Shown: positions 25,002 through 48,797 of the stretch, in pieces | Position numbering within the stretch: the stretch's first letter is position 1 | How the letters are laid out: the number at the start of each line of letters is the position of its first letter | Notes under the pieces: model-generated | Databases searched by the model: none | What the model saw: only the letters and a program-made list of their open reading frames with translations | What the model was told of the DNA's origin: nothing | Source of the DNA: an uncultured Omnitrophica bacterium | Lineage (GTDB): Bacteria > Omnitrophota > Gorgyraeia > JACQQV01 | Length of the DNA: 64,000 nt | Direction of reading: 5' to 3' | NCBI GenBank assembly: GCA_947085655.1 | Contig: CAMTXH010000003.1 | Location: 29,850 to 93,849 of the forward strand | Made by a program: the position numbers and the translations under genes

Positions 25002-25825
25002 GTCTCATTGTGATCACCAAAAACGAAGAGGCGAATCTCCGCGAATGCCTGGAGAGCGCGGAGGGACTTCCGGATGAAATTGTCATCGTGGACGATGAGA
25101 GCACGGACCGGACCCGGGAGATTGCACGGGAGTTTACCGATAAAATTTACAGCCGGAAGATGGACCTGGAAGGACGCCACCGGAACTGGGCCGCCTCCCG
25201 TGCCACCCACGACTGGGTGCTCTGGATGGATGCGGATGAACGGATGACGCCGGAACTCAAAGAAGAAATCCGCCAAACCCTCTCGCAGAGCAATGCCAAC
25301 ATCGCCGCCTACTGGATTCCCCGGAAAAACTATCTCGGAAAGAGGTGGCTGAAACATGGCGGCTGGTACGCGGCGCACATCAAACTTTACGACCGGCGGC
25401 TGACCCGTTGGCGGGAAGTGGTGCATGATGTGGTGCACCCAGGAATTGACATCGCGGAGGGGTATAGCGGGAAGGAGTTGAAAAAGCCGCTCATTCATTA
25501 CAATTTCAAGAACATAGAGGATTTTATCCAGAAGGTAAACCGGCACTCTACCTTTGAGGCGGTGAAGTGGCATCTACAGGGGAAGAGGATCACCCTTTGG
25601 CACGGGCTTTGGAAGGCCTTTGACCGTTTTTGGAAGCGTTACGTTTATAAAATGGGTTTCCTGGACGGTCTTGAGGGATTCGTTGCCGCTTTCTTGAGCG
25701 GGTTTTATCAGTTCGCCGCCTATTGCAAGTTCCGGGAAATTCGGAAAGAGGGGATTTATCTGGACCGTGTGGCTCCATCTCCTGACACAAAAGAACAACC
25801 CATTCAGCCCTCCGTGCCCCTGTAG
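24980..25825 (+). CDS. glycosyltransferase family 2
   Basis: The product contains LSLIVITKNEE...IVIVDDESTD...DADE, a GT-A DxD fold. It overlaps the upstream gene by 22 nt. Confidence 0.85.
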   Translation: MAERKKLSLIVITKNEEANLRECLESAEGLPDEIVIVDDESTDRTREIAREFTDKIYSRKMDLEGRHRNWAASRATHDWVLWMDADERMTPELKEEIRQTLSQSNANIAAYWIPRKNYLGKRWLKHGGWYAAHIKLYDRRLTRWREVVHDVVHPGIDIAEGYSGKELKKPLIHYNFKNIEDFIQKVNRHSTFEAVKWHLQGKRITLWHGLWKAFDRFWKRYVYKMGFLDGLEGFVAAFLSGFYQFAAYCKFREIRKEGIYLDRVAPSPDTKEQPIQPSVPL

Positions 25826-25892
25826 CTCAGATGGATAGAGCAGAGGTTTCCTAAACCTCGTGTCGGGAGTTCGAATCTTCCCAGGGGCACCA
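25816..25892 (+). tRNA. tRNA-Arg (anticodon CCU)
   Basis: The cloverleaf is read by eye. The acceptor stem is GCCCCTG/CAGGGGC, followed by A and CCA. The anticodon loop TTCCTAA gives anticodon CCT. T-arm GTTCGAATC. The 5' end overlaps the GT2 stop codon. Confidence 0.88.
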
Positions 25893-32180: not shown

Positions 32181-33383
32181 TCAGGCGGCGACTTCGTTCA
32201 AGAGGGTGAGAAACGCTTCCGAGACGCGGGGATCGAATTGACTGCCGATGTTCCGCTTGATTTCAAGGATGGCATCCGGCACACTCATCGCTTTCCGGTA
32301 GGCCCGGTCCGTGGTCATTGCATCAAAAGCATCCGCCAGTGAGACCACGCGGGCAATGGTCGGAATAGTCTCCCCAATGAGTCCATCCGGATAGCCGTTT
32401 CCATCATACCTTTCATGGTGGTTCCGCACGACGCTGATGCCATGATGGAGAAAGCGGAGCGGCTCCAGCATTTCAGCGCCGCGGCTCGGGTGGAGCTCGA
32501 TCTGCGCCCGCTCCGTCACCGTCAATTTTCCCGGTTTGTCCAGAATCTGGTCCGGAATCGCAATCTTTCCGATATCATGGAGTTTCCCGGTGGAGCGGAT
32601 GGCATCCAACTCCGTTTCGGCCAGTCCGATCCTCCGTCCCATCTCCAGGGCATAGCGGGTCACCCGTTCCGCATGGCCCCGCGTATACGAATGACGCGCC
32701 TCCATCGCCATCACAAGAGCGTTGATGGTGTCCAGGTATCCGACCTGTGTCTCTTCGTGCAGCTTGGCGTTTTTAATCGCAAGGGCCGTTTGAGAGGCGA
32801 AAGTGGAGAGGAGCCGTTTCTGTTTGGAGGTGAAGACGCCGGGTTGTCGCCCGTAGACGGTCAGCGTGCCGAGGACCTCGTCATAAAAAAGGATTGGGGA
32901 AGACATGATGGAGCGATACCCCTCCTCAACCACCAGTTGCGGATATCGGACCCTGTCGTCCTTCAAGACGTCATCGACCAAAATGATGATTCTTTCCTTA
33001 ATAGCCCGCCCCGGGATTCCTTCTCCCAGTTTCAGGGGGGTTTTAAGGAGGTAATCATTCGCAAGACCGTAAACCGATCCGGGGGGGAGGAGTTTTTTCT
33101 CTTCATTGTAGAGCCGGAGGGAACAAGCATCCGCCTTCATGATTTCGGCGACGAGACGGACCACCAAATCCGAAACATCCGAAAAGGTGGGAAAGCTGAC
33201 CAGCCCGTTTGAAACCTGAAAGACCGCTTCCAGTTCCCGGTTCAGATGCTGAAGATAGTCACTCCGGGCAAGCGCCTTTTTTTTGAAGCTTTGAGCGAGG
33301 GTTTGGTACTTCTGGAGGTTTTGTTGGAGGACGTCAACCTTTTTGGAGCGGGGACTCTTCCTTTTTTGAGATATTCCCATCAA
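32181..33383 (-). CDS. GAF sensor domain / HD-GYP domain protein (putative c-di-GMP phosphodiesterase)
   Basis: An N-terminal GAF domain is followed by an HD domain with HD...HHERYDGNGYP. Confidence 0.85.
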   Translation of the reverse strand: MMGISQKRKSPRSKKVDVLQQNLQKYQTLAQSFKKKALARSDYLQHLNRELEAVFQVSNGLVSFPTFSDVSDLVVRLVAEIMKADACSLRLYNEEKKLLPPGSVYGLANDYLLKTPLKLGEGIPGRAIKERIIILVDDVLKDDRVRYPQLVVEEGYRSIMSSPILFYDEVLGTLTVYGRQPGVFTSKQKRLLSTFASQTALAIKNAKLHEETQVGYLDTINALVMAMEARHSYTRGHAERVTRYALEMGRRIGLAETELDAIRSTGKLHDIGKIAIPDQILDKPGKLTVTERAQIELHPSRGAEMLEPLRFLHHGISVVRNHHERYDGNGYPDGLIGETIPTIARVVSLADAFDAMTTDRAYRKAMSVPDAILEIKRNIGSQFDPRVSEAFLTLLNEVAA

Positions 33384-43571: not shown

Positions 43572-44225
43572 ATGAACGGAATGGACATTCTTTTTCGGTT
43601 GCTTCTGGCTCTTTTGTTCGGAGGGGTGATTGGGTTTGAACGGGAGCGCCAGGGGCGGGCGGCCGGGTTCAGGACCCATATTTTGGTTTGCGTCGGGGCC
43701 TGTCTTGTGATGTGCCTTGGACTCTATTTGGCCGAACAGTATCCGAATTCTGACCCTTCCCGGATTGCGGCGCATGTCATCAGCGGCATCGGTTTTCTGG
43801 GAGCAGGGACGATTCTCCGGTTTCGTGTTTCTGTCCGGGGGCTGACCACCGCAGCGAGTCTCTGGACCGTTTCTGTCATCGGCCTTGCGGTCGGCGCCGG
43901 TTTCTATTTGGCCGCCCTCCTTGCCACCGGTGCGGTTTTGGTCACCCTTTACTGGCTCAATTTTCTGGTGGACAGAGTGATGACCCGGCGGGACTGGTAC
44001 CGGATGCTCCTTCTTGAAATGACCGGCAGTTTTGAAGGACTCCAGAATATCCGGGAAATCCTCGCCGCCTACCATGCGGAGATCAAGGATTTCAACATCG
44101 AAAAAAAAGAGGGCGGAACGGTTTCTTTAAGTTTGGACCTGCGACTTCTTTCTCCCCGGGATGAGGAGCCGATTGCCAAGGAGCTGTCAGGGTTGGAAGA
44201 CGTCAAACGGGCGGTTTGGAAGTAA
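43572..44225 (+). CDS. mgtC: MgtC/SapB family membrane protein
   Basis: The product has the MgtC N-terminal domain (GFERE..). The ATG follows a GGGGTGA RBS. Confidence 0.8.
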   Translation: MNGMDILFRLLLALLFGGVIGFERERQGRAAGFRTHILVCVGACLVMCLGLYLAEQYPNSDPSRIAAHVISGIGFLGAGTILRFRVSVRGLTTAASLWTVSVIGLAVGAGFYLAALLATGAVLVTLYWLNFLVDRVMTRRDWYRMLLLEMTGSFEGLQNIREILAAYHAEIKDFNIEKKEGGTVSLSLDLRLLSPRDEEPIAKELSGLEDVKRAVWK

Positions 44226-44242
44226 AACGAAGGAGGGATCAC

Positions 44243-44782
44243 ATGGCGATATTACGCGGCAAGGGAAAGGTTGAGGAAAAAGTGCTGGATGTGGATGCCA
44301 GTATGCAGGGGACGCTTTCCTTCCGGGATCCGGTGAATCTGAAAATTAACGGCAAGTTTGAAGGGACACTGGATACGCGGGGATCCTTGACGGTCGGGGA
44401 CAATGCGGTGGTTCAGGCAAACATCAAGGGAGAGACCATTATCATTTCAGGGAAGGTAAGCGGGAACATTACGGCACAGGAGATTATCCGGATCCTCCCA
44501 CCGGGCGAGGTGATCGGCGATATCCAGACACCCCTTCTCGAAGTCCAGGAGGGGGCCATCTTTCACGGAAATTGTCAGATGGGCAAGACAAAATCCATTT
44601 CTTCAGGCGCAAGAAGAGAACTTCTCACCGCAGAGGAACTGGCGCGCTATCTGGAAGTGGAAACCTCCTCCATCTTGGAATGGGCCGAACGGGGAAAGAT
44701 CCCGGGGGTTCGGGAGGGGAATTTCTGGAAATTTGACCGCGCCAAGATTGACGAGTGGGTCACGAACGAAAAGCTGAAATAA
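44243..44782 (+). CDS. bactofilin domain protein fused to C-terminal HTH (excisionase/MerR-type) DNA-binding domain
   Basis: The bactofilin beta-helix repeats read KINGKFEGTLDTRGSLTVGDNAVVQANIKGETIIISGKVSGNITA. The C-terminal HTH region reads LLTAEELARYLEVETSSILEWAERGKIPGV...WKFDRAKIDEWV. An AAGGAGG RBS is present. Confidence 0.7.
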   Translation: MAILRGKGKVEEKVLDVDASMQGTLSFRDPVNLKINGKFEGTLDTRGSLTVGDNAVVQANIKGETIIISGKVSGNITAQEIIRILPPGEVIGDIQTPLLEVQEGAIFHGNCQMGKTKSISSGARRELLTAEELARYLEVETSSILEWAERGKIPGVREGNFWKFDRAKIDEWVTNEKLK

Positions 44783-44788
44783 GGGATT

Positions 44789-45091
44789 GTGGAGGAAAAA
44801 CTTTTAAACATCAACGAGGCGGCGGCGGTCCTTTCGCTATCGATTCAGGATGTGGAGTTCCTGGTCAACGAAGGGAAAATCCCGGCCTTTCATCTGGACG
44901 GCAAGTATCTCCGCTTCCGGCGTGAAGATCTGGTTGCTTACCGGAGGACGGTTTTCTACCAGTCGGAGGAAGGAGGGGTAGTCCGATATACGTTAGGGGA
45001 CGGCCTTCACGACTTCTTTTATTTTAACGACTTCTACCTTTTTTCCCTCCTTTTCATTTTCCTCATCCTCTTTAGCATCCTGAAGATCTGA
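44789..45091 (+). CDS. small HTH (excisionase-family) domain protein with hydrophobic C-terminal tail
   Basis: The N-terminus reads LLNINEAAAVLSLSIQDVEFLVNEGKIPAFHLDGKYLRFRREDL. The C-terminus FYLFSLLFIFLILFSIL looks like a membrane anchor. It has a GTG start. Confidence 0.55.
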   Translation: MEEKLLNINEAAAVLSLSIQDVEFLVNEGKIPAFHLDGKYLRFRREDLVAYRRTVFYQSEEGGVVRYTLGDGLHDFFYFNDFYLFSLLFIFLILFSILKI

Positions 45092-45156
45092 ATTTCCCTT
45101 CCGACCGCATGTTACATTGATAAAATTGTAAATGTAACCTGTTGTGTCACAAGGAC

Positions 45157-45185
45157 TTGACACTTTACCCGAGGTGTGGTATACT
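45157..45185 (+). promoter_or_regulatory. sigma70 promoter TTGACA-N17-TATACT about 200 nt upstream of pilin gene; inverted repeat GTTACATT-N12-AATGTAAC (45111-45138) just upstream
   Basis: Read from the sequence. Confidence 0.6.
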
Positions 45186-45199
45186 TTTTCCCGCATACC

Positions 45200-45370
45200 G
45201 ATAAGGGCAAACCGCGGGAGACCGCGGGACATCCGCGAGTGAGGCATTCATCCTCCGGATTCCCCGCCAGAGCGGCGGGGAGCAAAGCCATGGGTCCTTA
45301 AAACGGTGAAGGGTGTCAGAACACCTAACACCACACGCCGTTTTACAGGATCGCCAGGCTGCCGAAGTAA
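45200..45370 (+). promoter_or_regulatory. structured 5' leader with c-di-GMP-I (GEMM)-like motifs
   Basis: GGGCAAACC-CCGCGG-GAGA-CCGCGG-GAC (45205-45230) mirrors the Vc2 riboswitch P2 arm GGGCAAACC-stem-GNRA-stem-GGGAC. GCAAAGCC lies at 45282-45289. Further hairpins are CCCCGCC-agag-GGCGGGG and UAAAACGG...CCGUUUUA. The spacing between the two motif blocks is longer than in the canonical aptamer. Confidence 0.3.
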
Positions 45371-45386
45371 CGAAGGAGAATGCCTC

Positions 45387-45842
45387 ATGAGAAAACGGGA
45401 AAAGGGATTTACCCTTGTCGAAGTCTTAACTACCTCTTGCATTGTCTCCCTGATTGCCCTCCTGGCGATACCCAATTTTGTCAGGGTTTGGCAGGATGTG
45501 AATGAAAGGACCGCCCAGGAAACACTCCGGACCATTCACCAGGCGATGATTTCCTACCGGGGATTCAATTTAAGTTATCCATCCGATCTTACGGAATTGG
45601 CCGATTCCCAAGGGGGCCCTTACTATCTGAATCAGAGTGTGGCAAGCGGGAAAAAATCGGGCTACCTTTATCGTCTGGATTCGAGCGACAAATATACGTT
45701 CCGCGTTACCGCGATTCCAGAAAATCCCGGTGTGAGCGGAAAACGGTCCTTTGTCGTGACGGAAGCAGGCCTTATCGAGACAAACTCCAGTACTGTCACC
45801 ATTGTTCCGAACGCCACAGAACCTGGCCTGGACGGCAGGTAA
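45387..45842 (+). CDS. type IV pilin / pseudopilin (prepilin-type N-terminal cleavage/methylation domain)
   Basis: MRKREKGFTLVEVLTTSCIVSLIALLAIP carries the class III signal G/FTLVE. A GAAGGAG RBS is present. Confidence 0.8.
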   Translation: MRKREKGFTLVEVLTTSCIVSLIALLAIPNFVRVWQDVNERTAQETLRTIHQAMISYRGFNLSYPSDLTELADSQGGPYYLNQSVASGKKSGYLYRLDSSDKYTFRVTAIPENPGVSGKRSFVVTEAGLIETNSSTVTIVPNATEPGLDGR

Positions 45843-45873: not shown

Positions 45874-45902
45874 TTGATTTTTCGTACATAATATAGTATA
45901 AT
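45874..45902 (+). promoter_or_regulatory. sigma70 promoter TTGATT-N17-TATAAT upstream of TPR protein gene
   Basis: Read from the sequence. Confidence 0.55.
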
Positions 45903-45929: not shown

Positions 45930-48797
45930 GTGTCCAGACGGAAAATAATTTTTCTTTTTATCCCAATTTTTCTTTTATCGACTCCTTTAGAAGGGGCGGT
46001 GAATGAAGATGCAATCCGCTACCGGATCCGGGGCTACCAACTCCAGCACCAGGGCTATGTGGAGGAAGCGATCGAACTCTACCGGAAGGCGATCGAGGCG
46101 GACCCGAACTATGCTGCTCCCCACAATGACCTGGGCGTCATTTACGAAGAACGGGGGGATCTGAAACTGGCGGAAGGGGAGTACCTGGAAACACTCCGGA
46201 TCGACCCCCAATACGTCGATGCCTATTCCAATCTTGCCATTCTCTACGGCAAACAGAATCAAAGAGAAAAGATGCTTGAAATGCTGAAAAAGCGGGTTGA
46301 CTTGGGGGAGCCGGAGGATATCGGAACCCGCGAGGCGCAGGCGAAACTGGATTCTTTGGGTGTGGTGACGGAAATTCCCGAGAAACCCCGGCCCGCTGTT
46401 CCTCCTTTTGAGAAAAGACCTTCTGCCGAAATCAGGCCCCTGAAGGAGATTCCGGAAGCCCCTCCGGTTGTAGAGGCAAAGGAGGAGCAAAAGGCGCTCC
46501 GGGAGGAAATGAAGGCGGTTAAAAAGGAAATTTTAGAGAAAGAAACGGCTGCGCGAAAACTGGAGGATCGGGAGAAAGCGGTTCAGGTTGTTGAAGAGCC
46601 TGCTGCTGAAAAAGCGGCGGCACTCCGGAATGAAGGGTTGAAACACCACCAAAAGGGCGAGCTGGATGAGGCGATCCGGAATTACCGGGAGGCGATCCGC
46701 ATGAACCCCGATTTTGCAACCGCCTACAACGACCTGGGAATTGCCCTGGAGGAAAAAGGGTTTCTGGAAAACGCCGAGACCCAATACCTGAATGCACTGG
46801 CACTCGATCCTTCCTACACCCATGCCCTCTATAACCTCGCTCTTCTCTACGCCAAAATGGAACGGCGGAAAGAGGCGATTCAAACCCTTGAAGAATTTCT
46901 GAAAAAGAAAGTGGACAGCAAGCGGAGCGGCGTCGCCCGGGCCAAACTCGAAGTCCTTTTGAATGAGGAAAAAGAAGAGGCCGAGCGGCTTGCCCGGGAA
47001 CAAGAGGCCAAACGGCTCGAAGCAGAGGCGAAACGCCGCCAGGAGGAGGAAGCAAGGAAGCGGGAAGAGGCTTTGGCGTCTCTCCGGGGGGAAGTCGAGA
47101 AAGAGGTCAAAGCCGAATATGAAGAGAAATTCAAACTGACCCAATTTTTTGAGCAGGGCAAGGTCGCTTTTCAAAACGGGGATTACCCGACGGCAAAAGA
47201 CCTCTTTGAAAAACTCCTCGTGATCGACCCGGAAAACGAAATGGGAAAAACCTATCTCGCCAAGGTTGAGGAAGCCGTTCAGGAAGCGGAACGGAAAAAA
47301 GAGATAGAAGCCGAAAGACAACGACAAGAGGCGGAAGAGGCGCGCCGGATGGAAGAGGAGAAAAGAGTGAAAGAGGAAGAGAAACAAAAGCGTACGACAG
47401 CCCTTTATGATGAAGCGAAAGAGATGTACCGTTCCGGCAATCTGGATAATGCCCTTCTCCGCTTTCAGGAGATTCTGATCCTCGAACCGGAACATCCCTA
47501 TGCAGGACGGTATGTGGATCGGATTCGGGAACGAAAAGAGGAACTTGAGGCGGAGAGGATCGCCCGTGAGAAGGCGGCCCGTGAGGAAGACCAGGCGCGC
47601 CGGCGCCAAATCGCCGAGTATTTTGAGGAAGCGGAAAAACAGGTTCGGGAGCGTTCCTACGACGAAGCAATCAAGACGTATCGAGAACTTCTTTTACTCG
47701 ACCCGGAGCATAAAGAGGCGAATCGACGGCTTGAGGAGATCCGGGAGACCCTCCGGAAAAAGAAAGAGGAAAAACATCTCGCCAAAATCCGCAAAAAAGA
47801 GACACGTCTTGAAGGTGCCGAGAAGCGGATGAAAGAATCGGCTCAGACGTATTACCAAGCAGGGCTCAAAGCGTTCCGGGAGGAAAAACTGGATCAGGCC
47901 GAATATGCGTTCCGAAAGGTCCTTTCATACGACAAAAGTCACAAAGAGGCGAATAAGCAGCTTGTCCTCTTGATGGAAAAACAGGCGGAGCTGGAGGCAA
48001 GGGTCTGGCGGGAGGAACAGGAGGCCATTTTCCGAAAGGAATACACCCCCGCCGAAGAAAAACGGCTTTACGAACGGGCAAAGGCGGCTTATGACGCGGG
48101 GGATTATCGGATGGCGCAGAAAACGCTCGAGTATCTCCTTTTTCTTGACCCGAATCATCCGTTTGCGCCGAGGGATCTGGATGAAGTGGAGGCCAAAATC
48201 CGGGTAGCGCATCAAAAGGAGGCGGTGGCCGAGGCGGCCCTCAAAAAGGAAGCTCGGAAAACCCTTTCCCGTCCTCCCTCTGTCAGTGTGACTGAACCTT
48301 TTCTCCGGGCTCAAACCAAGCCCCAGGAAATCCCCTATTTCCGGCCGTCCCCTTCCGATCGGCTGGATGCTTTCGTGGAGGATGAACCGGTTTGGACAGA
48401 CGCGCACCAGGCGATGGAAAGGGTCGCCCTTGCCTACCATCAGCAGGCGTATGACCTTCAACGTCAGAACGACGTTGAAGGGGCCATTGCCCAATACCGG
48501 AAGGCGATGGCGATCCGCTCGACACCGGGGGCGGCGAACAGTTTGGGTGTCTTGTATGAAAAGAAGGGATGGTACACCCAAGCGGAACAGTATTACAAAA
48601 AAGCGCTGAGACTTGATCCGGCGTATCTGGCGGCCCATACGAATCTGGCCCTTCTCTATGAGGATTTGGAGCGCAAGGAGGAGGCCCTGGCCCACTGGCG
48701 GATCCGGGCCGAGCAAGGGAAAAAGGGAGAGGCGTGGACTGAGCACGCCCGGCGCCGCCTTGAGGCGGTTCAGGCGGTTCCTGAAAAGAACCCTTGA
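45930..48797 (+). CDS. large secreted TPR-repeat protein with interspersed Lys/Glu/Arg-rich coiled-coil segments
   Basis: The 955-aa product has a signal peptide and a GTG start after a GGAGGA RBS. Pairs of TPR motifs (AxxYxNLGxxY) recur about 8 times and are separated by EEAERLAREQEAKRLE-type charged helices. Confidence 0.75.
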   Translation: MSRRKIIFLFIPIFLLSTPLEGAVNEDAIRYRIRGYQLQHQGYVEEAIELYRKAIEADPNYAAPHNDLGVIYEERGDLKLAEGEYLETLRIDPQYVDAYSNLAILYGKQNQREKMLEMLKKRVDLGEPEDIGTREAQAKLDSLGVVTEIPEKPRPAVPPFEKRPSAEIRPLKEIPEAPPVVEAKEEQKALREEMKAVKKEILEKETAARKLEDREKAVQVVEEPAAEKAAALRNEGLKHHQKGELDEAIRNYREAIRMNPDFATAYNDLGIALEEKGFLENAETQYLNALALDPSYTHALYNLALLYAKMERRKEAIQTLEEFLKKKVDSKRSGVARAKLEVLLNEEKEEAERLAREQEAKRLEAEAKRRQEEEARKREEALASLRGEVEKEVKAEYEEKFKLTQFFEQGKVAFQNGDYPTAKDLFEKLLVIDPENEMGKTYLAKVEEAVQEAERKKEIEAERQRQEAEEARRMEEEKRVKEEEKQKRTTALYDEAKEMYRSGNLDNALLRFQEILILEPEHPYAGRYVDRIRERKEELEAERIAREKAAREEDQARRRQIAEYFEEAEKQVRERSYDEAIKTYRELLLLDPEHKEANRRLEEIRETLRKKKEEKHLAKIRKKETRLEGAEKRMKESAQTYYQAGLKAFREEKLDQAEYAFRKVLSYDKSHKEANKQLVLLMEKQAELEARVWREEQEAIFRKEYTPAEEKRLYERAKAAYDAGDYRMAQKTLEYLLFLDPNHPFAPRDLDEVEAKIRVAHQKEAVAEAALKKEARKTLSRPPSVSVTEPFLRAQTKPQEIPYFRPSPSDRLDAFVEDEPVWTDAHQAMERVALAYHQQAYDLQRQNDVEGAIAQYRKAMAIRSTPGAANSLGVLYEKKGWYTQAEQYYKKALRLDPAYLAAHTNLALLYEDLERKEEALAHWRIRAEQGKKGEAWTEHARRRLEAVQAVPEKNP

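Follow-up and report, generated by a model that had tools for sequence, protein, structure and literature searches.

The gene at 45387–45842 on the plus strand of the stretch analysed here (64,000 nt of contig CAMTXH010000003.1 from an uncultured Omnitrophica bacterium, hereafter the window) encodes a type IV pilin-like protein and is preceded by a long, structured leader, which raises the question of whether this leader holds a riboswitch for cyclic di-GMP (c-di-GMP), and of how such an element would control the gene downstream. An earlier note, made from the sequence alone, had pointed to motifs resembling those of the c-di-GMP-I (GEMM-I) riboswitch, and had described the resemblance as not canonical. 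That description is correct, but the departure from the canonical form represents a conserved architecture, and not degeneration. We describe here the element, which very probably is an aptamer of the c-di-GMP-I class, and the two hairpins inserted next to its predicted ligand pocket, one of which has probably been recruited at this locus as an anti-Shine-Dalgarno (anti-SD) sequence, giving a modelled translational switch that is embedded in the aptamer itself.

The c-di-GMP-I-class element and its parts

Searching the whole window with cmscan at the Rfam gathering thresholds gave two matches, one to tRNA and one to c-di-GMP-I. The latter (RF01051) covered 45196–45366 on the plus strand and model positions 1–87, scoring 38.4 bits where the gathering score is 35, a margin that is small because the model offers no place for the insert described below. 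Thus the family that had been proposed from motifs is also assigned by covariance models, and with canonical specificity residues. In a permissive scan, the top Rfam bit score for the window was obtained with c-di-GMP-I-GGC (RF03167; 43.6 bits), which shares clan and fold with RF01051, but its gathering score of 59 was not reached, and the window has GCAAAGCC, with A at A47, where the RF03167 consensus has GCGAAGCC, with G. Judging from the two printed consensus lines, the 'GGC' in the name of this family would refer to positions 20, 47 and 92. No further GEMM-like cores were found in the window.

The window was mapped to the numbering of the Vc2 aptamer through PMC11705072 and PMC7288161. In Vc2, C44 is turned out of the P1b stack and pairs with G83 of P2, the helix below the ligand is closed by G45-C22 and C46-G21, and A47 is part of the pocket (PMC11705072, PMC7288161); the GEMM-I ligand pocket includes C46–G50 (PMC7288161), and C92 pairs with one ligand guanine (PMC11705072). 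On this scale G20 corresponds to 45206, G21 and C22 to 45207–45208, C44 to 45230, G45 and C46 to 45282–45283, A47 to 45284, G83 to 45353 and C92 to 45362. The window has the canonical base at each of the residues that touch the ligand or set its specificity (G20, A47 and C92) and at both partners of the C44-G83 tertiary pair, and the leader is predicted to bind c-di-GMP.

The 5′ core of the aptamer (45199–45211) contains the 5′ strand CG of P1a (45199–45200, equivalent to C13 and G14 of Vc2), an AUAAG junction, G20, G21 and C22, and A23–A25 (45209–45211), as aligned by RF01051, RF03167 and the subclass model R1 described below. It is followed at 45212–45230 by the P1b hairpin CCGCGG-GAGA-CCGCGG, which has 6 bp and a GNRA loop and is supported by pairing across the subclass, and by GAC (45228–45230; G42, A43 and C44). 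This first motif block (45205–45230) reads GGGCAAA-CCGCGG-GAGA-CCGCGG-GAC, as stated in the earlier note apart from a 'CC' which had been counted twice. At the closure of P1b, GC at 45207–45208 can pair with GC at 45282–45283, with AAA at 45209–45211 opposite the GAC.

Exactly two hairpins separate the motif blocks, as had also been noticed, and both are supported by covariation in the subclass. Hairpin A (45231–45260, 30 nt) has five closing pairs, bulges and an 8-nt loop, GGCAUUCA, which is complementary to the spacer GAAUGCC upstream of the start codon, and it is the imperfect one of the subclass set. Hairpin B (45261–45281, 8 bp; UCCCCGCC-AGAGC-GGCGGGGA) directly follows hairpin A, is directly followed by G45, and is folded in both predicted states of the leader. 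The second motif block, GCAAAGCC at 45282–45289, provides G45 and C46 (paired with C22 and G21), A47, A48 and A49, the last of which begins P2, and was aligned with high posterior. The long hairpin that follows is P2 (45286–45360), for which the cmscan and R1 alignments give a 5′ strand at 45286–45297, a distal hairpin of 50 nt at 45298–45347 and a 3′ strand at 45348–45360; its bulge is CG, and the bulged G45353 is G83, the predicted tertiary partner of C44 (C45230). In the alignments, the 3′ tail GCCGAAG (45361–45367) holds the C92 equivalent at 45362 and the 3′ strand CG of P1a at 45363–45364. The clear pairs of P1a are only C45199-G45364 and G45200-C45363, and inspection of the sequence gives an extension limited to U45196-G45367 and A45195-U45368 across a 2×2 mismatch.

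Compared with RF01051 and Vc2, the leader thus has the same three-helix core, with P1b, P2 and a tentative P1a, the same GGCAAA, GAC and GCAAAGCC motifs, a GNRA-capped P1b and a location in the 5′ untranslated region, but it differs by a 51-nt two-hairpin module between C44 and G45, by the 50-nt distal extension of P2, by a P1a with 2 core pairs, and by an anti-SD inside the aptamer, in hairpin A, instead of downstream of P1a.

The position of the module depends on the register of the alignment, since the RF01051 match spreads 171 nt over an 87-position model and cmscan accommodates these by inserting 53 nt in the P1b loop and approximately 46 nt in the P2 loop. Were this the true fold, P1b would be a long-range helix of 45212–45217 with 45272–45277 around a 53-nt variable loop, and the local CCGCGG hairpin would be incidental. 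Both RF01051 and RF03167 align the window in this way, and CCGCGG is self-complementary and occurs three times, making alternatives to the local P1b possible. However, the Rfam register costs one non-standard pair and turns the conserved GAC into GGA, a model in the local register scores 26 bits more, a GNRA-type hairpin of 6 bp (4 bp in L113) and GAC precede the insert in 30/30 listed members of the subclass, and hairpins A and B covary in the local register. We therefore reject the Rfam register on this comparative evidence and consider it hardly credible; the register that is supported is that of the earlier note, with a P1b GNRA hairpin, GAC, two hairpins and GCAAAGCC in succession.

Insert-bearing aptamers in Omnitrophota and Planctomycetota

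One genome per GTDB species was scanned for the pattern GGCAAACC-N10-16-GGGAC-N35-65-GCAAAGCC, which gave at least 118 loci. These consist of three groups: chance matches without the hairpins, canonical or tandem aptamers in which GAC is directly followed by GCAAAG, and 29 aptamers built like that of the window (30 with the window; these and all further subclass counts are among the matches listed). The 29 members come from Omnitrophota (19), Planctomycetota (9) and one unclassified metagenome-assembled genome, and share the P1b hairpin with its GNRA-type loop, the GAC, two abutting hairpins without a linker, GCAAAGCC, P2 and an (A/G)CC tail, with the search pattern itself dictating the invariance of GCAAAGCC. 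The insert is located exactly between C44 and G45 in all 29 members as well as in the window.

In 24/30 members, the pairs that close the two hairpins begin precisely at the boundaries of the insert and run uninterrupted for 5 or more positions in each hairpin, a closure that was seen in 18/6000 shuffled inserts and in 0/71 non-aptamer pattern matches. When the inserts were aligned with their boundaries as anchors, 97.2% of the cells were paired, versus 63% for shuffles and 27–52% for partners slid by 1–3 columns. All ten counted pairs of the two hairpins change on both sides (A 5/5, B 5/5), and the covariation score of the A/B pairs is 0.892 versus 0.201. Pairing across the subclass amounts to 96.7–98.4% for hairpin A and 94–100% for hairpin B, and sequences aligned to the covariance model are paired for 98.4% in hairpin A, 100% in hairpin B and 92% in P2. 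The canonical helices behave similarly, with 99.4% of P1b cells paired and changes on both sides of 4/6 pairs in P1b and 6/11 pairs in P2. Because the stem sequences are unrelated between genomes, it is selection, and not shared sequence ancestry, that maintains the structure of the insert.

The window was left out of the covariance model R1, for which 21 insert-bearing aptamers from other genomes were used after trimming of their loops. This model matched the window over its full length (45201–45367) with 64.7 bits and an E-value of 2.7e-13, aligning hairpins A and B as consensus helices with high posterior. Genuine members scored 54–74 bits, with two members that have a very long P2 at 37–43 bits, but canonical aptamers scored 41–59 bits, some of them 55–59. 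The R1 bit score is consequently not a clean discriminator of the two architectures, and it is the alignment of A and B that marks the subclass. There were no R1 matches among the approximately 70 chance pattern loci, nor among 80 loci with distant pilin homologues. The Rfam gathering threshold reports 14/29 of the listed insert-bearing aptamers, all with 35.6–46.6 bits, the window likewise being a marginal pass, whereas canonical aptamers in the same loci as insert-bearing ones reach 62.7–81.9 bits.

Other identities for the insert were considered and rejected. A separate RNA family or a second aptamer did not emerge from a permissive Rfam scan of 45050–45450, which gave only c-di-GMP models; a known family is not apparent either, as the hairpin loops and stems lack conserved sequence across members; and a random repeat or mobile element does not fit with an identical site in 30 diverged aptamers that carry unrelated sequences. 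In the literature searched, we found no description of helices inserted between C44 and G45 of GEMM-I, and an earlier mention may exist.

Several of the loci contain further elements. In an Omnitrophota leader (L030:1475–1742, minus strand), an insert-bearing aptamer at 1623–1742 is followed approximately 70 nt downstream by a canonical aptamer at 1475–1552 in a tandem arrangement, and three further loci (L016, L018 and L102) contain a canonical aptamer elsewhere in the same 8-kb locus. Two of the canonical aptamers, L030:1475–1552 (72.2 bits) and L018:851–932 (63.3 bits), pass the RF03167 threshold, and represent Omnitrophota and Planctomycetia; the first reads GACGCAAAGC, with A where the RF03167 consensus has G, and the RF03167 model may therefore capture lineage-specific features rather than the variant base. 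In another Omnitrophota member (L066:2117–2343, minus strand), the aptamer tail AGCCGGGUUACCGAAG is followed approximately 30 nt later by the near-repeat AUAGCCGAGCUACCGAAGG, which could be an expression-platform mimic of the 3′ strand of P2. The gene following the L066 aptamer encodes an N_methyl pilin-like protein, and those following other members encode DUF5329 proteins, single-domain response regulators and small secreted proteins.

The module enters the P1b internal loop on its 3′ strand, a single nucleotide away from C46 and A47 of the pocket, and the AAA/GAC internal loop thereby becomes a multi-helix junction. We infer that the chain faces outwards between C44 and G45, in which case an insertion would be plausible on steric grounds. 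As the GNRA caps are kept, and motifs resembling the 11-nt receptor are present in P2 of some members (seen by eye and unscored), the A/B module appears not to replace the tetraloop contact. It is conceivable, with chances slightly short of even, that the insert-bearing aptamers form an unrecognised structural subclass of c-di-GMP-I that is widespread in Omnitrophota and Planctomycetota, with a module that has a function of its own and can be exapted as an embedded expression platform. Such a module might, for example, change the affinity or the kinetics of ligand binding, receive a second input or serve as a docking site.

An insertion this close to the pocket could also mean that the subclass senses another cyclic dinucleotide or a related nucleotide, the pocket having been reshaped near C46 and A47. 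Single-base changes do switch specificity in the GEMM-I fold, with G20A leading to cGAMP binding and G20A/C92U to c-di-AMP binding, and the Geobacter GEMM-Ib riboswitches for 3′3′-cGAMP, which have the same overall fold and belong to the same Rfam family, show that small changes to the scaffold alter the ligand (PMC7288161); furthermore, the window scores higher on RF03167 than on RF01051. However, cGAMP specificity goes with A20, whereas the window and the listed members have G20, which is a free observation for the window and is partly imposed by the search pattern for the other members. The window and 29/29 listed members are canonical not only at G20 but also at A47, C92, the C44-G83 pair, the AAA/GAC loop and the GNRA cap, and RF03167 is disfavoured both by its gathering score and by the base at A47. 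The genes downstream (pilin-like proteins, secreted proteins and response regulators) are typical targets of c-di-GMP, and canonical and insert-bearing aptamers share loci, once in tandem. A different ligand is therefore quite improbable, with c-di-GMP being the expected one.

The predicted expression platform and its conservation

The ribosome-binding region of the pilin-like gene (45371–45389, plus strand) comprises the SD sequence GGAG at 45375–45378, the spacer and the AUG at 45387–45389. In the unconstrained fold of the leader, P1b, hairpin B and P2 are kept and hairpin A is opened, with the anti-SD at 45239–45257 pairing with 45371–45388. This helix has 17 pairs, 11 of them contiguous, and takes in the GGAG and the spacer as well as the first two bases of the AUG, while G19–G21 pair with the freed 5′ arm of hairpin A. 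In the free ensemble, the probability of being unpaired is ≤0.07 at 16/18 of the positions computed (45372–45389). Folding from the predicted transcription start gives a minimum free energy of −95.7 kcal/mol for the free fold versus −79.5 kcal/mol for the aptamer-enforced fold, in which the SD is mostly free, and hairpin A alone has −10.3 kcal/mol versus −26 kcal/mol for the competing anti-SD duplex. A transcript ending at 45368 folds unaided into P1b, A, B and P2, and hence the aptamer would form before its competitor is made. The complementarity of the insert to the ribosome-binding region is unusually strong (z = −5.6), with 0/300 shuffled inserts being as good. This signal was seen in 0/12 other subclass members, and an anti-SD within the insert as a general property of the subclass was thus rejected. 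No intrinsic terminator was found between the aptamer and the pilin-like gene, which makes transcriptional attenuation unlikely, and since P1a and the G21-C46 and C22-G45 pairs cross the anti-SD helix topologically, the two states are mutually exclusive.

These folds suggest the following mechanism. The aptamer, including hairpin A, would fold first during transcription, and binding of c-di-GMP would lock the junction formed by P1a, G21-C46, C22-G45 and hairpin A. The SD and AUG, which emerge 10–25 nt later, would then stay single-stranded and the pilin-like protein would be translated, so that the element would act as an ON switch. In the ligand-free state, the SD-spacer-AUG segment would nucleate on the 8-nt loop of the weak hairpin A, using GGCAUUCA as a toehold, and displace this hairpin to form the 17-pair helix that hides SD and AUG, with G19–G21 re-pairing with the freed 5′ arm of hairpin A in this OFF state. 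We have good confidence in translational control through the helix of 45239–45257 with 45371–45388, and only slightly less in the explanation as a whole, which likely consists of an insert-bearing GEMM-I aptamer (45199–45367) at the 5′ end of the mRNA with hairpin A as its embedded platform, switching on expression. The ON polarity taken by itself is favoured somewhat less firmly. It is the simplest reading, because the ligand would lock the aptamer and leave the SD free, and it agrees with the biology of c-di-GMP and pili in Clostridioides difficile (PMC6366702).

The leader is conserved in the four assemblies of the same species (L001–L004). In L001 it carries three single nucleotide polymorphisms (SNPs), of which one at 45328 changes U-G to U-A in P2, one changes U-A to U-G in the anti-SD helix, and one is located in a bulge; thus 2/3 fall in predicted stems and both retain pairing. 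A more distant relative from Hainich groundwater (L005) encodes a pilin which is 79% identical, and has kept the DNA of the SD-AUG and the N-terminus as well as the CCGCCGAAG tail, but has GGGCAAGAAAACC where the window has GGGGAGCAAAGCC. The earlier note had made its proposal depend on the leader being conserved upstream of pilin genes in relatives, and on this point the outcome is divided, with conservation in L001–L004, but no recognisable leader in L005 or upstream of 80 distant pilin homologues (≤40% identity) from a metagenome scan, in which no aptamer was found. A distant relative of the pilin (L006:2967–5495) is among three pilin paralogues that lie in tandem downstream of PilS/PilR-like genes, with a palindrome of approximately 60 nt (L006:3893–3954) between the first two paralogues, and there is no c-di-GMP aptamer at that locus.

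Several observations weigh against the proposed switch. The nearest-neighbour model gives the sequestered fold an advantage of 16 kcal/mol over the aptamer fold, and switching therefore needs kinetic trapping or a large contribution from the ligand or tertiary contacts. P1a offers no more than 2 Watson-Crick pairs and some weak extensions, and how stably Vc2 binds its ligand depends on the length of this helix (PMC11705072). Even with ligand bound, the spacer could still pair with the loop of hairpin A and so make the polarity less clear-cut, and most other listed members seem, by eye, to carry downstream terminators. As for L005, the one relative at a greater distance, its contig ends 150 nt upstream of the gene; this part matched no aptamer model and contains nothing recognisable as an aptamer, and the leader may have decayed or been replaced there.

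Part of these points also fit a genuine c-di-GMP aptamer that acts with the opposite polarity, or one next to a constitutive SD-sequestering helix that is opened by temperature, an RNA chaperone, a small RNA or a standby site, the aptamer then acting mainly on mRNA stability or access of Rho. The greater stability of the sequestered fold, an SD and AUG that are hardly ever unpaired in the free ensemble, the presence of a rho gene in the window and the possible contact of the closed hairpin A loop with the spacer all agree with such arrangements. However, nothing else sequesters the SD in the aptamer-enforced fold, leaving an OFF switch without an obvious structure, while an anti-SD inside an element that the ligand-bound architecture needs closed is a classic mutually exclusive arrangement, and completion of the aptamer approximately 10 nt before the SD is transcribed makes a kinetic decision possible. 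We regard these alternatives together as unlikely, although they weigh more than the others considered here. That the element is a decayed pseudo-riboswitch or a chance resemblance in a GC-rich structured leader might be thought from an Rfam score just 3.4 bits over the threshold, from the short P1a and from L005, the nearest non-identical relative. This is contradicted by the 64.7 bits (E ~3e-13) on the independent model R1, by the intactness of every functionally important residue, by the SNPs in L001 that keep pairing, and by a placement between a near-consensus promoter, which it follows immediately, and a typical target gene, as suits a working riboswitch, and we give decay or chance very little credence. 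The preferred explanation thus remains an ON switch operating on translation, with switching at this leader predicted from its folds.

Promoter, genomic context and relation to known systems

The strong promoter and the leader of approximately 195 nt that were noted earlier are both present. The σ70-type promoter TTGACA-17 nt-TATACT at 45157–45185 on the plus strand, with an extended −10 TG, has 11/12 consensus matches, and there were 4 promoter-like sites in the region versus 1.2 expected. The predicted transcription start is at approximately 45192–45195, which gives a leader of approximately 194 nt before the AUG at 45387 and puts the aptamer start 4–8 nt past the predicted transcription start. 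Folding of this leader is much stronger than that of shuffles (z = −7.05).

The inverted repeat that had been seen just upstream of the −35 is exact, with GTTACATT-N12-AATGTAAC at 45111–45138, and occurs once in the window; shuffles average 0.09 matches even with 3 mismatches allowed. It is centred approximately 68 nt 5′ of the predicted transcription start, is identical in L001 and L004, and is a possible regulator-binding site. Directly upstream of the repeat and promoter are two neighbouring genes with excisionase-type HTH_17 domains (44216–45091), of which the first (44216–44782) has HTH_17 fused to a bactofilin domain and the second (44789–45091) has HTH_17 with a hydrophobic C-terminal tail; their products are candidate binders of the repeat. 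Public assemblies also call an 84-aa gene on the minus strand (44993–45247). It extends across the inverted repeat, the promoter and the initial third of the aptamer, has no Pfam match and is probably spurious.

The downstream gene had been recognised as a type IV pilin gene, and the 151-aa product of 45387–45842 indeed has a prepilin leader (MRKREKG-FTLVEVL, with the hyphen at the processing point) with the methylation motif above the cutoffs of both Pfam N_methyl (22.1 bits, cutoff 21.2) and NCBIfam TIGR02532 (20.8 bits, cutoff 16.3), as well as weaker matches to ComGC, GspG and PilA. A search among 5.8 billion proteins gave only 4 homologues. No pilus machinery was found within the 64-kb window, the remaining genes of which are housekeeping genes, and the pilin-like gene is thus an orphan. 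A second promoter-like site at 45874–45902 (TTGATT-17-TATAAT, 10/12) lies between this gene and 45930–48797, which encodes a 955-aa protein rich in tetratricopeptide repeats (TPR) and coiled coils; the pilin-like gene may therefore be monocistronic. The HD-GYP gene reported before, which encodes a predicted c-di-GMP phosphodiesterase, is located at 32181–33383 on the minus strand, 12 kb from the riboswitch. Its product has GAF and HD_5 (128.5 bits) domains, with HD at residue 269 and GYP at residue 330, and a partial NCBIfam match to a c-di-GMP phosphodiesterase family, and its presence indicates that the organism turns over c-di-GMP. The tRNA gene at 25816–25889 (Rfam 63.1 bits) is the sole further RNA-family match in the window.

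Control of pilin genes by c-di-GMP riboswitches, for which precedent had been claimed, is known from C. difficile, where a c-di-GMP ON switch controls pilA1 (PMC6366702). Both that element (Cdi-2-4) and the leader described here are c-di-GMP-sensing leaders, the latter by prediction, directly before a type IV pilin gene, but Cdi-2-4 belongs to another aptamer class (class II) with an unrelated fold, uses transcription termination and antitermination, and comes from a Gram-positive host. In C. difficile, the ligand turns expression on and so couples high c-di-GMP to pilus and adhesion functions (PMC6366702), and the same polarity is predicted for the leader in the window.

What is known of the element is thus the c-di-GMP-I class, which is callable through Rfam, and what seems to be new is the two-hairpin expansion that defines a subclass in Omnitrophota and Planctomycetota. 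Few known RNA-ligand systems are as tight as the c-di-GMP riboswitches, which are also a model in the study of RNA folding, and a conserved, covarying two-helix insertion beside the pocket offers a natural test of the tolerance of the GEMM-I fold for expansion and of what such an expansion contributes. An anti-SD within a peripheral hairpin of the aptamer would be a compact translational switch that is potentially reusable in synthetic biology. Omnitrophota and Planctomycetota are for the most part uncultured, and a central role in their lifestyle is ascribed to pili and to attachment to surfaces. Because insert-bearing aptamers are misaligned by the Rfam model, which detects only about one in two, genes under c-di-GMP control are under-annotated in these phyla, which a subclass-aware covariance model would correct; if the subclass is as proposed, c-di-GMP regulons in Omnitrophota and Planctomycetota would be systematically under-called. 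For the organism itself, the prediction is that the pilin-like surface protein would be made only at high c-di-GMP.

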